Below are positions 31,456 to 34,696 of a DNA stretch of 64,000 bases, piece after piece; the first letter of the stretch is position 1, and every line of letters starts with the position of its first letter. This stretch comes from Escherichia coli. GTDB lineage: Bacteria > Pseudomonadota > Gammaproteobacteria > Enterobacterales > Enterobacteriaceae. A program made the translations under genes and the position numbers. Where the stretch lies: assembly GCF_965641715.1 (NCBI RefSeq), contig NZ_OZ282453.1. The stretch is one strand, 5' to 3'. The notes under the pieces are model-generated. The model saw nothing but the letters and a program-made list of their open reading frames with translations. It was not told where the DNA came from and searched no databases.

Positions 31456-32862
31456 ATGAATAGCAGTAAATTATCAGTAAGAGAAAAGATCGGCTACGGG
31501 ATGGGCGACGCAGGATGCAACATCATCTTTGGCGCTATCATGCTGTTTGTTAACTATTTTTATACGGATATTTTTGGTCTGACCCCGGCTCTCGTTGGCG
31601 TATTACTGCTCTCTGTACGGGTTATCGATGCCGTCACTGACCCGATTATGGGGGCCATTGCCGACCGCACCCAAAGCAAATATGGTCGTTTTCGCCCCTG
31701 GCTATTGTGGATTGCCTTCCCCTACGCGCTATTCAGCATCCTGATGTTTACCACGCCAGAATGGAGCTATAGCAGCAAGGTTATCTATGCCTTTGTTACC
31801 TATTTCCTGCTCTCCCTGACCTATACCGCCATTAACATTCCTTACTGCTCGTTAGGTGGCGTGATTACTAATGACCCACAAGAGCGCGTGGCCTGCCAGT
31901 CGTACCGTTTTGTGATGGTGGGCATCGCTACCCTTCTGCTCTCGCTGACGCTATTGCCGATGGTGGATCTATTTGGCGGCGGCGACAAAGCGAAAGGGTA
32001 TCAGCTGGCTATGACCGTGCTGGCAATCATCGGTATGTGTATGTTTTTGTTCTGTTTCGCCACGGTTCGTGAGCGCATTCGCCCGGCGGTACAAACCCAT
32101 GACGACATGAAGAACGATTTTAAAGATGTCTGGAAAAACGATCAGTGGGTGCGCATTCTGCTGCTCACCTTGTGCAACGTCTGCCCTGGATTTATCCGCA
32201 TGGCGGCAACCATGTACTATGTCACCTGGGTAATGGGTGAGAGTACTCAGTTTGCAACCCTCTTTATTAGCCTCGGCGTTGTCGGAATGATGATCGGCAG
32301 TATGTTGGCGAAAGTGTTAACCGACCGCTGGTGCAAACTGAAAGTCTTTTTCTGGACCAACATCGCGCTGGCAATTTTCTCCTGCGCCTTTTATTTCTTT
32401 AATCCGCACGCCACGGTGATGATTGTGGTGCTCTACTTCCTGCTCAACATTCTGCACCAGATCCCCTCCCCGCTGCACTGGTCGCTGATGGCAGACGTCG
32501 ACGACTACGGCGAATGGAAAACCGGTAAACGCATCACCGGCATCAGCTTCTCCGGTAACCTTTTCTTCCTCAAACTGGGCCTGGCCATTGCCGGGGCGAT
32601 GGTGGGCTTTCTGCTCTCATGGTACGGCTACGATGCCGGTGCGAAAGCCCAAAGCGCCACGGCGATTAACGGTATTGTACTGCTCTTTACCGTCATTCCT
32701 GGGGTGGGCTATCTGATTACCGCAGGCGTCGTCCGCCTACTGAAAGTAGACCGCGAACTGATGAAACGCATCCAGACCGATCTGGAAAAACGTCGCACCA
32801 ATTACCGCGAACTGAATGACTATCAGGAAATAAACGCTGTAGAAACAGTAAGGAAAGCCTAA
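31456..32862 (+). CDS. GPH-family (glycoside-pentoside-hexuronide):cation symporter, MelB/YicJ/YagG-like
   Basis: 468 aa, about 12 predicted transmembrane helices; N-terminal GYGMGD motif typical of the GPH/MFS_2 family. Confidence 0.8.
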   Translation: MNSSKLSVREKIGYGMGDAGCNIIFGAIMLFVNYFYTDIFGLTPALVGVLLLSVRVIDAVTDPIMGAIADRTQSKYGRFRPWLLWIAFPYALFSILMFTTPEWSYSSKVIYAFVTYFLLSLTYTAINIPYCSLGGVITNDPQERVACQSYRFVMVGIATLLLSLTLLPMVDLFGGGDKAKGYQLAMTVLAIIGMCMFLFCFATVRERIRPAVQTHDDMKNDFKDVWKNDQWVRILLLTLCNVCPGFIRMAATMYYVTWVMGESTQFATLFISLGVVGMMIGSMLAKVLTDRWCKLKVFFWTNIALAIFSCAFYFFNPHATVMIVVLYFLLNILHQIPSPLHWSLMADVDDYGEWKTGKRITGISFSGNLFFLKLGLAIAGAMVGFLLSWYGYDAGAKAQSATAINGIVLLFTVIPGVGYLITAGVVRLLKVDRELMKRIQTDLEKRRTNYRELNDYQEINAVETVRKA

Positions 32863-33812
32863 TGCAAGACTGGCCGAATCCATTTATCGAGCAACGCGCC
32901 GATCCCTTTATACTGCGCGATGGCAACCACTATTATTTTATCGCCTCGGTGCCGGAGTACGACCGGCTGGAAATTCGCCGGGCAGACTCGCTCGTCGGGC
33001 TGCGCAGCGCCACGCCTGTCGTGGTGTGGCGTAAACCGCAAAGCGGCCCCATGAGCGAACTTATCTGGGCGCCGGAGCTGCATCATATTGCAGGTCGGTG
33101 GTATATCTATTTTGCCGCCACCCATACTCAGGCGCTCGACAAACTGGGGATGTTTCAGCACCGGATGTTTGCCCTTGAATGTTGTGATGCCGATCCGCTC
33201 AGCGGAACGTGGATTGAAAAAGGACAAGTTAAAACACCATTTGATACTTTTGCCCTGGATGCCACCACTTTTCACCATCAGGGTAAACAGTGGTATTTGT
33301 GGGCGCAAAAAGCACCGGATATCGCCGGGAACTCCAATATTTACCTGGCCGAAATGGAAAATCCGTGGACGATCAAAGGCGAGCCGGTGATGTTGAGCAA
33401 ACCGGAGTATGACTGGGAATGTCGCGGATTCTGGGTCAATGAAGGTCCGGCTGTCGTGATGCATGGCGAGCGGTTATTCATCAGCTACTCAGCCAGCGCT
33501 ACCGACGAGAACTACTGCATGGGGTTATTGTGGATAGACATCGACGCTGACCCGAGAGTGCCTGAGAACTGGCATAAATCGCCGCGTCCGGTCTTTTCGA
33601 CCAGCTATGAAAATCGCCAGTATGGCCCCGGACATAACAGTTTTACCCAAACGCCCGAGGGTGAGGATGTGCTGGTCTACCACGCACGTAATTACACCGA
33701 AATAGAAGGCGATCCACTGTACGATCCTAATCGCCATACGCGCTTAAAATTGATTCGCTGGGATGAAAGTGGGATGCCTGACTTTGGCATCCCTCCTGCG
33801 GAGACTTACTGA
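32862..33812 (+). CDS. Glycoside hydrolase family 43-like protein (beta-xylosidase / alpha-L-arabinofuranosidase type)
   Basis: 316 aa; N-terminal ADPFILRDGNHYYF (catalytic Asp region) and WVNEGPAV (catalytic Glu region) typical of GH43; start overlaps the transporter stop (TAATG). Confidence 0.75.
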   Translation: MQDWPNPFIEQRADPFILRDGNHYYFIASVPEYDRLEIRRADSLVGLRSATPVVVWRKPQSGPMSELIWAPELHHIAGRWYIYFAATHTQALDKLGMFQHRMFALECCDADPLSGTWIEKGQVKTPFDTFALDATTFHHQGKQWYLWAQKAPDIAGNSNIYLAEMENPWTIKGEPVMLSKPEYDWECRGFWVNEGPAVVMHGERLFISYSASATDENYCMGLLWIDIDADPRVPENWHKSPRPVFSTSYENRQYGPGHNSFTQTPEGEDVLVYHARNYTEIEGDPLYDPNRHTRLKLIRWDESGMPDFGIPPAETY

Positions 33813-33819
33813 TTACAAT

Positions 33820-33840
33820 GCCCGGTGTATATCGCCGGGC
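33820..33840. other. Hairpin gcccgg-tgtatatcg-ccgggc between the convergent GH43 and ampE genes
   Basis: 6-bp GC stem seen in sequence; no clear U-tract, so terminator function is uncertain. Confidence 0.3.
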
Positions 33841-33841
33841 A

Positions 33842-34696
33842 CTACACCAACGCCCCGTAAACCGTCAGTAGCGCAATTACCACCACGACCACGAACGAGG
33901 TTTTCTTCGCCATTGAAACTGCTGCTTTCGGCGTCTCAACCTTATCGACATGCGGTTCACGCGCCAGTGAGAACTGTGCCAGACGCGTTAATACCTGGTA
34001 TTGCGATGTATGGAAATCGGTCAGTGAAGCAAACCAGGCTGGTAACGCTTTCTCACCGTGACCGATCAAGGCATATACCACTCCCGCAAGACGAACCGGC
34101 ACCCAATCCAGTACATGAAGCACTGCATCAATGCCGGACTGTAAACGATGATGCGGCGTCTGGTATCGCGCCAGCCAGTATTGCCATGCACGCAAGAACG
34201 CATACCCCATCAGCGTAACGGGTCCCCAGGTTCCCCCCACAATCAGCCAGAACAGCGGTGCAAGATAAAAACGAAAGTTAATCCACAGCAATGCATTTTG
34301 CAGCTCACGCAAATACTCACGTTCGTCGCAGCCTGCCGGGACGCCGTGAATCATGGTGAGTTCGCCAGCCATCGTGGCACGGGCATGGCTATCATTACGT
34401 GAAGCAGCTGTCAGATAAGCATGATAATGAAGACGAACTTTACCTGCGCCAATACACAGCAAACCAATCAGCAGCCACACCAGCAGCGTGGGAACGTTGA
34501 ACAATACTCCCTGCAATGCGCGTAACAGTAAAAAAGTCACGCCCATCGCAATAATGGTCATGCCTAACGTGCGCCCGAGAGAAAAATGTTTCACCCGCCG
34601 AAAGAACGCTTCAAGACGATGAGCAAGCTGCCAGTGCTCGCCCAACTTAAACAGGCGCTCGAAAATTAACACCAGTAAGGTTGTAAATAGCGTCAT
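33842..34696 (-). CDS. ampE: Inner-membrane protein AmpE
   Basis: 284 aa from [15 protein letters not shown]...; overlaps the ampD stop. Confidence 0.93.

Follow-up and report, generated by a model that had tools for sequence, protein, structure and literature searches.

A transporter-hydrolase pair between aroP and ampE in a minority of Escherichia coli is the probable orthologue of the enterobacterial araT-araU operon, with an araBAD-like promoter

We analyzed a 64-kb stretch of Escherichia coli DNA (the window) in which genes for a sugar symporter and a glycoside hydrolase lie between aroP and ampE. It is quite probable, in our judgment, that this pair is orthologous to the araT-araU operon of enterobacteria, which is a branch of the AraC regulon, and that it is an ancestral operon that was deleted and then re-imported. 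The araT-araU operon is already named and known in Salmonella.

The ORF of araT (31456-32862 on the + strand) encodes 468 amino acids and the ORF of araU (32862-33812, also +) encodes 316. The last A of the araT stop codon (TAA) is the first base of the araU start codon (ATG; CCTAATGCAAG at 32858-32868), so the two genes and their TAATG overlap are as a first-pass annotation, made from the sequence alone, had described them. That annotation also stated that aroP and ampE are only tens of base pairs apart in K-12, without the pair, which is right: in the K-12 strain JM109, 42 bp separate the stop codons of aroP and ampE. A BLAST comparison of the K-12 locus with the window showed that 2512 bp (31331-33842) stand in place of 10 bp of K-12 (CAATAATCTT). 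This segment comprises the promoter, araT, araU, and a 3' hairpin, and about 99% of complete E. coli genomes lack it.

Both of the hairpins that had been reported to flank the module do fold. The aroP terminator hairpin (31307-31331, + strand; 10-bp stem, -21.2 kcal/mol, z = -3.3) is common to K-12 and the window and borders the K-12 deletion on the left, as homology to K-12 stops at 31330. The other hairpin, with a 9-bp stem, separates the stop codons of araU and ampE (33819-33841; -17.7 kcal/mol on the + strand and -16.7 kcal/mol on the - strand). It is possibly a two-way terminator; it lacks a U-run on the + strand and was not called by a terminator scan. A search of 31200-33950 against Rfam, with E up to 1, gave no match, which means that this region has neither a riboswitch nor a known sRNA. 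Antisense ORFs within araT and araU (such as 32859-33464 on the - strand) are unsupported, and we take them to be due to chance.

By homology, AraU is a cytoplasmic exo-α-1,5-L-arabinofuranosidase of the GH43_26 type. Residues 5-306 (of 316) align to positions 2-288 (of 288) of Pfam's Glyco_hydro_43 (PF04616; E = 1.3e-79). Enzymes of GH43 have a catalytic triad of a general-base Asp, a pKa-modulating Asp, and a general-acid Glu. In AraU, the corresponding motif residues are Asp14 (RADP), Asp133 (LDAT), and Glu194 (NEGP), and these are the same in alignments with the structures 5M8B, 5M8E, and 3K1U. So the earlier description of a GH43-like protein with its catalytic Asp and Glu was correct, and the sequence motifs it relied on (GYGMGD in the transporter and the ADPF and VNEGP regions in the hydrolase) are all present, as RADPF and VNEGP, along with LDAT. 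AraU matches 5M8B, 5M8E, 3K1U, and 3AKF with E values from 1e-104 to 1e-127 and 58-60% identity (about 60% to 5M8B and 58% to 3K1U). Beyond the structures from subfamily 26, the next GH43 protein in PDB matches only at E = 1e-15. (We take 5M8B to be LbAraf43 from Lactobacillus brevis and 5M8E to be WAraf43 from Weissella.) AraU thus groups with the characterized members of GH43 subfamily 26 and not with the other subfamilies, and exo-α-1,5 cleavage is predicted from this similarity. NCBIfam does not include a model for AraU. The first-pass annotation suggested uptake and cleavage of an arabino-oligosaccharide, among other glycosides, which fits; it also left the substrate open, and this no longer holds given the roughly 60% identity to GH43_26 exo-α-1,5-L-arabinofuranosidases. 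Aryl or terpenoid arabinofuranosides may be additional substrates.

The Pfam domain begins at residue 5 of AraU, which leaves no room for a signal peptide, so we conclude that AraU does not have one. Like AraU, the GH43_26 enzymes of known structure 5M8B and 5M8E consist of a single five-bladed domain of about 315 amino acids. In contrast, SaAraf43A from Streptomyces avermitilis (3AKF-3AKI) is secreted, has an additional carbohydrate-binding module, and has 468 amino acids, while the enterobacterial AraU is a bare cytoplasmic domain that is coupled to a GPH transporter.

AraT is a MelB-like member of the GPH:cation symporter family (TC 2.A.2), as had been proposed, and it is predicted to transport a glycoside together with a cation. 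It scores 425.7 bits against TIGR00792 ("GPH:cation symporter"), well above the cut-off of 231.35, and residues 11-446 cover the entire model (1-437 of 437). Also, residues 13-432 match Pfam's MFS_2 (PF13347; E = 1e-97), and structures of MelB match AraT at E = 8e-48. Helix II of MelB has an acidic motif, Asp55 ... Asp59 in D-x-x-x-D-P-I-M-G, in which Asn58 is a ligand of Na+. When RVIDAVTDPIMG of AraT is aligned with RIWDAINDPIMG of MelB, both aspartates of the motif are retained and Asn58 is replaced by threonine; because this Na+ ligand is replaced, AraT is probably proton-coupled. The annotation's comparison to YicJ and YagG was apt, but AraT scores 492.6 bits against the YicJ model (PRK11462; cut-off 836) and 480.8 bits against the YagG model (PRK09669; cut-off 610). 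AraT is below both cut-offs, so it is a paralogue and not a member of either group. We infer only from the partner enzyme AraU that short arabino-oligosaccharides would be its substrate. Of the three findings that the annotation named as fatal to its reading (the pair being in K-12, a hydrolase outside GH43, or a transporter outside the GPH family), none turned up.

The 125-bp spacer before araT looks like an araBAD-type promoter with sites for CRP and AraC, and the predicted sites are conserved across 72 species. The annotation stated that the module has no regulator. None is encoded in cis, so this part of the statement stands; the spacer with its AraC/CRP-type promoter, which would be controlled in trans, contradicts the rest. 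When we aligned the araT spacer to the E. coli araBAD region, the score was 51.5, as compared to 15.3 ± 5.1 for 500 shuffles (maximum 41.5). The CRP-like half-site, the first AraC half-site (I1), and the -10 hexamer occur in the same order in both promoters, with spacings within 1 bp of each other, and both promoters have a TCTCCATA box past the -10.

The CRP-like site is TGTTA-CCTGCC-TCACA (31332-31347, + strand), whose function is suggested by conservation and by its alignment with GTCACACTTT of the araBAD regulatory region. The pattern TGT[TA]A-N6-TCACA is present in 71 of 72 species, and its distance from the AraC box is fixed at 29 bp in 64 of the 71 loci that have both motifs. The putative I1-type half-site, AAGCGATTTTATCCATA (31360-31376, +), includes an exact match to AGC-N7-TCCATA at 31361-31376. 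This motif lies at -99 relative to the start codon of araT and at -102 for araBAD and araE. The half-site is conserved in 52 of 72 species by a strict definition and in all 72 by a relaxed one. The window contains three matches to AGC-N7-TCCATA, versus 0.37 expected. (The two other matches are one identical 16-mer, in copies 303 bp apart, at ~25 kb.) A second AraC-type element, which resembles I2, is CAGCGGCGTTATCCTGC followed by AACGCA (31378-31400, +). It is predicted from conservation and from its alignment with GATCCTACCTGACGC of araI2: most columns of the block aTcCTGCaACGCA are at least 90% conserved, and matches of the type CTG[CT]..ACGC are found at this element in 65 of 72 species. 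Aligning the AGC/TCC boxes places it 18 bp past I1, versus the canonical 21 bp; the register is 18 or 21 bp.

The probable -10 hexamer, AATAAT (31419-31424, +), is present in 72 of 72 species. Of the 65 loci that have an I1 box as well as this hexamer, 64 place it 58 bp past the AGC of I1; in E. coli araBAD, the corresponding distance, to TACTGT, is 57 bp. There is no good -35 in the araT spacer, which is expected of an activator-dependent promoter, and a generic scan for sigma-70 promoters gave only chance-level hits, none of them in this spacer. The Shine-Dalgarno sequence of araT is GGGGAG (31442-31447, +); it is 8 nt 5' of the start codon and has a conserved consensus, gGaga. Unlike araBAD, the araT promoter lacks upstream O1 and O2 sites as well as a divergent araC, and hence shows no sign of a repression loop; also, the I2-like box is shifted by 3 bp. 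In Salmonella, the blocks of the araT promoter are nearly identical (TGTTA-N6-TCACA, ATTTTATCCATATCAGCGGCGT, ATCCTGC.ACGCAA, and GAATAAT), but the Escherichia spacer has an extra TATCCATA at 31404-31411.

We also noticed that a TCTCC-type box just 3' of the -10 can pair with the Shine-Dalgarno sequence to form a leader hairpin. The arms from the same species pair with a mean of -8.59 kcal/mol, versus -7.94 kcal/mol if the arms are swapped between species, and a value this low was obtained in just 1 of 5000 permutations, although relatedness among the species inflates this result. We do not claim that the hairpin is under selection: the effect is small and is mostly due to the conserved TCTCC against GGAGA. 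By analogy to araBAD, the 5' arm lies upstream of the likely transcription start.

Salmonella araT-araU (STM0149-STM0148, or STM14_0178-STM14_0177) has the same site between aroP and ampE, the same gene order, and the same overlap of stop and start codons. Stringer and colleagues, in work from 2014 on the AraC regulons of E. coli and Salmonella, reportedly found binding of AraC at Salmonella araT. The relevant excerpt of a citing paper lists araU (STM14_0177) among the arabinose-responsive genes of Salmonella and credits this to Stringer et al., 2014. STM14_0177, STM14_0178, and aroP (STM14_0180) have been listed together, with STM14_0177 annotated as "putative cytoplasmic protein." A 2025 study of Salmonella described both genes of the pair as "dramatically induced by L-arabinose." And in the mouse gut, STM0148 is required for an expansion that depends on arabinose in the diet (Ruddle et al.).

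Two pairs in K-12, yagG-yagH and yicJ-yicI, likewise combine a GPH symporter with a cytoplasmic glycoside hydrolase encoded after it, but they differ from araTU in their hydrolases and regulators. YagH is a larger GH43 protein of the β-xylosidase type and YicI is a GH31 α-xylosidase. OA04_38360-38370 of Pectobacterium versatile, which is from a different family of Enterobacterales, also encode a GPH symporter and a GH43_26 enzyme, and they are co-regulated with the ara genes. The Pectobacterium study described the enzyme as a CAZy 43.26 exo-α-1,5-L-arabinofuranosidase "specialised at cleaving short arabinooligosaccharides"; the AraC profile gave no match before that operon, and control by PhoP was proposed.

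We propose that AraT imports short L-arabinofuranosyl oligosaccharides with α-1,5 linkages (for example, arabinobiose and arabinotriose), which other organisms or the plant would release from pectic arabinan. AraU would then strip terminal arabinose from them in the cytoplasm; its class is assigned from the ~60% identity, and its range of substrates would follow from that class. The freed L-arabinose would feed AraBAD and would also bind AraC, which, together with cAMP-CRP, would activate the araBAD-type promoter of araT at the predicted sites. Under this control by arabinose, the operon would need no regulator of its own.

Could AraU instead be extracellular and free L-arabinose from dietary polysaccharides, with the transporter carrying free arabinose or some other cargo? 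In Salmonella, the advantage from STM0148 needs a dietary polysaccharide that contains arabinose and vanishes if free arabinose is provided (Ruddle et al.), and a role in sugar transport was suggested speculatively for the pair in the 2025 study. Ruddle et al. interpret their data to mean that STM0148 releases arabinose from dietary polysaccharides, but this is not directly possible for a cytoplasmic exo-enzyme. AraU has no signal peptide, with its catalytic domain starting at residue 5; the Salmonella protein is annotated as cytoplasmic; araU is translationally coupled to the gene for a GPH glycoside symporter; and the closest characterized enzymes are described as working on short oligosaccharides. 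Furthermore, the in vivo data fit equally well with the uptake of oligosaccharides that were freed by the diet, the host, or microbes. So we consider an extracellular AraU to be quite improbable. We find it just as hard to believe that the pair acts on some other substrate, either β-xylosides or xylo-oligosaccharides (as for yagGH) or plant α-L-arabinofuranosides such as those of flavonoids or saponins. Some databases do name the enzyme "GH43 family beta-xylosidase," the best NCBIfam models for AraT are YicJ- and YagG-like, and the specificity of GH43 enzymes can shift. However, AraU is 58-60% identical to exo-1,5-α-L-arabinofuranosidases with solved structures, the promoter is of the arabinose type and arabinose is the inducer of the pair in Salmonella, and the phenotype in Salmonella is specific to arabinose.

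As to the origin of the pair, the first-pass annotation described it as inserted. A horizontally acquired accessory island, that is, a foreign cassette between aroP and ampE, would explain why the pair is lacking in K-12 and in 99% of complete E. coli genomes, and also why the module is nearly identical in the window, in E. coli EC2641, and in the unclassified Escherichia E1V33, whose flanks differ by 3-10%. But the gene order pdhR-aroP-symporter-GH43-ampE-ampD-nadC is kept in most of the 80 enterobacterial loci that we retrieved. The divergence from Salmonella (91% identity for AraT and 87% for AraU) is similar to that of the flanking core genes (92% for AroP and 84% for AmpE), and so is the GC content (51.7% for the module versus 52.1% for the window). 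No direct or inverted repeats turned up at the ends of the module in a repeat search, so we reject a mobile element, and there is no integrase, transposase, or tRNA target at the module. Its edges appear to be homologous-recombination junctions inside aroP and ampE, so the moving unit would be an ancestral chromosomal segment. The foreign-cassette reading is largely refuted, and we give it very little credence. Rather, the synteny at the same site, the flank-like divergence and GC content, and the lack of repeats imply that the K-12 state is a deletion. Among 5426 complete E. coli genomes, 53 have the module and 5370 have the same empty junction (at 95% identity or above). So, in contrast to Salmonella, complete E. 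coli genomes seldom have the pair (about 1%), and where they do, it looks re-imported. The copies in E. coli are 99.3-99.8% identical to each other and to E1V33. In the window, the 3' 200 bp of ampE (33842-34041, - strand) also has an E1V33-like allele, with 3 mismatches to E1V33 versus 18 to K-12, while across the next 300 bp the pattern is reversed (5 versus 27). This tract points to the right arm of the recombination event that brought the module in, and hence to re-import by homologous recombination. The E. coli copies could alternatively be vertical relics in a few lineages, with many losses elsewhere: the locus is ancestral, and the copy in E. whittamii is about 9% diverged, as vertical descent predicts. 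Yet one junction common to 5370 genomes fits a single old deletion, and neither the near-identity of copies whose flanks are 3-10% apart nor the E1V33-like arm in ampE is what relics would lead us to expect, so we view this as unlikely. Our proposal is that the locus would be ancestral to Enterobacteriaceae, that one deletion would have occurred in the line to E. coli, and that the locus would have returned recently to about 1% of the complete E. coli genomes, through homologous recombination from an E1V33-like lineage of Escherichia; for this specific route of return, we are evenly divided between belief and doubt. (A literature search on E1V33 found nothing.)

Arabinofuranosyl sugars are reportedly out of reach for typical E. 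coli. The E. coli that have the module, which include NCTC9112 and AR_0085, are from human, poultry, pig, and environmental sources, with the operon intact, and these strains could differ in their gut and plant-associated nutrition. Although our results do not change what is known of the araT-araU system itself, the names araT and araU can replace the generic "GPH symporter" and "GH43 protein" in annotations of E. coli. The locus would be a neat case of a species losing an ancestral gene pair and regaining it through the core genes on either side. If this is true, then the re-import restores a lost branch of the AraC regulon and could let these strains use arabinan oligosaccharides from the diet in the manner of Salmonella, and this might affect their colonization of the gut or of plants.

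The window carries two genes between aroP and ampE: araT (31456-32862), which encodes a symporter of 468 amino acids, and araU (32862-33812), which encodes a GH43 hydrolase of 316 amino acids. Both are on the + strand, with a one-base overlap within TAATG. They are bounded by the aroP hairpin (31307-31331, folding at -21.2 kcal/mol) and a small hairpin 3' of araU (33819-33841, -17.7 kcal/mol). In K-12 JM109, the stop codons of aroP and ampE are 42 bp apart, and 10 bp (CAATAATCTT) take the place of 2512 bp (31331-33842) in the window. The first-pass annotation had described these ORFs, their overlap, both hairpins, and the short K-12 spacer, and was right in all the details that we checked.

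It also described the module as inserted, which the relatives do not bear out. When one genome per species was scanned, the hydrolase had 348 relatives, and we retrieved the best 80 of these 348 loci. Most of them have the order pdhR-aroP-symporter-GH43-ampE-ampD-nadC, in genera that include Citrobacter, Salmonella, Enterobacter, Klebsiella, Raoultella, Kluyvera, Kosakonia, Lelliottia, Leclercia, Pluralibacter, Phytobacter, Trabulsiella, and Yokenella. Compared with a Salmonella enterica contig of the same gene order, AraT and AraU (91% and 87% protein identity) have diverged about as much as AroP (92%) and AmpE (84%), and at the nucleotide level araT, araU, and aroP are all 80-83% identical. 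The GC content of the module is 51.7%, versus 52.1% for the window. A repeat search found no terminal repeats around the module, and there are no mobility genes among the ORFs at the locus. We therefore infer that the common ancestor already had the pair here and that the short aroP-ampE spacer of K-12 is a deletion scar.

A few of the relatives differ locally. Among the best 80 of the 348 loci, the only one without any flanking gene is from Gallibacterium salpingitidis (Pasteurellaceae). Its pair has 80-86% protein identity and an AT-rich, unrelated upstream region, suggesting that the pair was transferred from the Enterobacteriaceae. In Enterobacter pulveris, a second GH43 paralogue (64% identical) lies upstream of the transporter, and in Superficieibacter electus about 900 bp of additional sequence separate the GH43 gene from ampE.

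Within E. coli, the module is rare: 53 of 5426 complete genomes have it, always on the chromosome at this site, with 99.3-99.8% identity to the window. The K-12-type empty junction gives a single contiguous match, at least 95% identical, in 5370 genomes, which fits one old deletion. The module is nearly the same in the window, in E. coli EC2641, and in the unclassified Escherichia E1V33 (mostly 0-3 mismatches per 200 bp, with 5 at the right end), and the flanking genes of E1V33 are about 3-10% different from those of E. coli. The copy in E. whittamii is about 9% diverged, as are its flanks. In the window, the 200 bp of ampE adjoining the module have 3 mismatches to E1V33 versus 18 to K-12, and the following 300 bp have 27 versus 5; the ampE of E1V33 is diverged from K-12 evenly along its whole length. 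The simplest reading of these sequences is that an E1V33-like tract was imported into E. coli by homologous recombination. For EC2641, the crossover on the right falls essentially at the module's edge. On the left, the mosaic in the 3' part of aroP is more complex.

We also noticed that 400 bp of this part of aroP (30700-31100) are about 5-9% different from K-12, EC2641, and E1V33 alike, and that the best identity over 30700-31455 among the 5426 genomes is not above about 97%. This looks like a third donor allele or a local recombination hot spot in aroP. Upstream of aroP (positions 1-4049 of its retrieved locus), EC2641 has a long Hcp-type tssD gene of 1782 bp and, after it, a series of repeated genes annotated as "bacteriocin immunity protein"; the window and K-12 have pdhR there and lack this type VI effector/immunity array at this place. 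In E. coli MB56 (NZ_CP073936.1, 3866421-3870193), an IS3-family element, ISSen4, interrupts the module, and the transporter annotation there is split in two; the other copies listed seem intact.

As the first-pass annotation proposed, the two proteins belong to the GH43 and GPH families. AraU consists of one GH43 domain, with PF04616 matching residues 5-306 of its 316 (E = 1e-79), and its Asp14, Asp133, and Glu194 motifs are conserved. Its closest structures are PDB 5M8B (60% identity, E = 3e-127), 5M8E (E = 7e-127), 3K1U (58% identity, E = 8e-127), and the Streptomyces avermitilis arabinofuranosidase 3AKF (E = 3e-104); the next GH43 structure is at E = 1e-15. The GH43_26 enzymes that Linares-Pasten et al. 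2017 described from Lactobacillus brevis and Weissella are 5M8B and 5M8E, and the entries 3AKF-3AKI belong to SaAraf43A (Fujimoto et al. 2010). In Ruddle et al., 3AKH is cited as S. avermitilis, and a Pectobacterium study places an operon orthologous to araTU in CAZy 43.26. The annotation had suggested a xylo- or arabino-oligosaccharide or similar glycoside, a sugar class that these similarities support, and had left the substrate open, which they argue against. Because the catalytic domain starts at residue 5, AraU has no signal peptide, and its Salmonella orthologue (STM14_0177) is annotated as a "putative cytoplasmic protein." Given its translational coupling to a glycoside symporter, the most plausible role of AraU is intracellular cleavage of imported oligosaccharides.

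AraT matches TIGR00792 (425.7 bits, with a cut-off of 231) and, over residues 13-432, Pfam MFS_2. Its closest solved relatives are the MelB permeases (E = 8e-48). Both helix-II aspartates of MelB are kept in the alignment, and Asn58 is replaced by Thr; by analogy with what is known of MelB, this hints at coupling to protons rather than sodium. AraT is related to YicJ and YagG as a paralogue rather than an orthologue.

The annotation also stated that the module has no regulator. None is encoded at the locus, but the 125-bp spacer upstream of araT holds conserved CRP-like, AraC-type, and probable -10 blocks that resemble those of araBAD. In an alignment across 72 species, the blocks with at least 90% conservation are a CRP-like site (TGTTA-N6-TCACA, 31332-31347), AGC..TTT..TCCATATC (31361-31378), ATCCTGCAACGCA (31388-31400), AATAAT (31419-31424), and the Shine-Dalgarno sequence. 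The block at 31361-31378 exactly matches AGC-N7-TCCATA, a pattern common to araI1 (TAGCATTTTTATCCATA), the araE site, and a ytfQ site of MG1655. This I1-type box is at -99 from the araT start codon, versus -102 in araBAD and araE. The spacings are constant across genera: of the 71 loci that have both the CRP and the I1 box, 64 place them 29 bp apart, and of the 65 that have both I1 and AATAAT, 64 place these 58 bp apart, versus 57 bp from araI1 to the araBAD -10. Aligned with the araBAD regulatory region of E. coli, the whole spacer scores 51.5, versus 15.3 ± 5.1 for 500 shuffles (maximum 41.5) and at most 10 for two control spacers from the window. The I2-like element is 3 bp off the canonical 21-bp repeat. 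AGC-N7-TCCATA occurs three times in the 64-kb window, versus 0.37 expected; the other two matches are an identical 16-mer (AGCCGGAACTTCCATA, 25025-25040 and 25328-25343), 303 bp apart and unrelated to the araTU locus. Judging from where they lie, both copies probably belong to the lipoyl-domain repeats of aceF.

A second TATCCATA (GCAATTTATCCATAG, 31404-31411) lies downstream of the I2-like box and ahead of the -10. E. coli and E1V33 have it, E. whittamii has a degenerate version, and it is not conserved outside Escherichia; it may serve as an additional AraC half-site specific to this genus. Just after the probable -10 (31425-31447, and at the same place in retrieved loci L004-L082), a TCTCC-type box could pair with the Shine-Dalgarno sequence, to which it is complementary. 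A hairpin is predicted in most species (-11.1 kcal/mol in the window), with weak covariation support. The same TCTCCATA box occurs in E. coli araBAD, where its complement is the GGATGGAG of araBAD. The araBAD analogy suggests that the 5' arm may be left out of the transcript. The hairpin could matter for read-through transcripts from aroP.

L-arabinose, the enzyme's product, is the likely inducer, acting via AraC with cAMP-CRP as co-activator. Stringer et al. reportedly coined the names araT-araU for the Salmonella pair and observed AraC binding upstream of it. A citing paper lists araU (STM14_0177) among the arabinose-responsive genes, with reference to Stringer et al., 2014. L-arabinose is reported to induce STM14_0177 and STM14_0178 "dramatically"; their locus tags adjoin aroP (STM14_0180). 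These Salmonella data agree with arabinose control, and araTU in the window is the orthologue of this already described system. Salmonella STM0148 (araU) gives an advantage in the mouse gut that depends on dietary arabinose, and superspreader-level expansion requires it (Ruddle et al. 2023). In contrast to the published Salmonella wording, a cytoplasmic exo-enzyme with a symporter favours oligosaccharide uptake, not direct release of arabinose from polysaccharide. What may be new, modestly, is the rarity of the operon in E. coli, at about 1% of complete genomes, along with the suggestion that it was re-imported from another Escherichia lineage. Typical E. coli have been described as unable to reach L-arabinofuranosyl sugars directly, which is consistent with the deletion of araTU.
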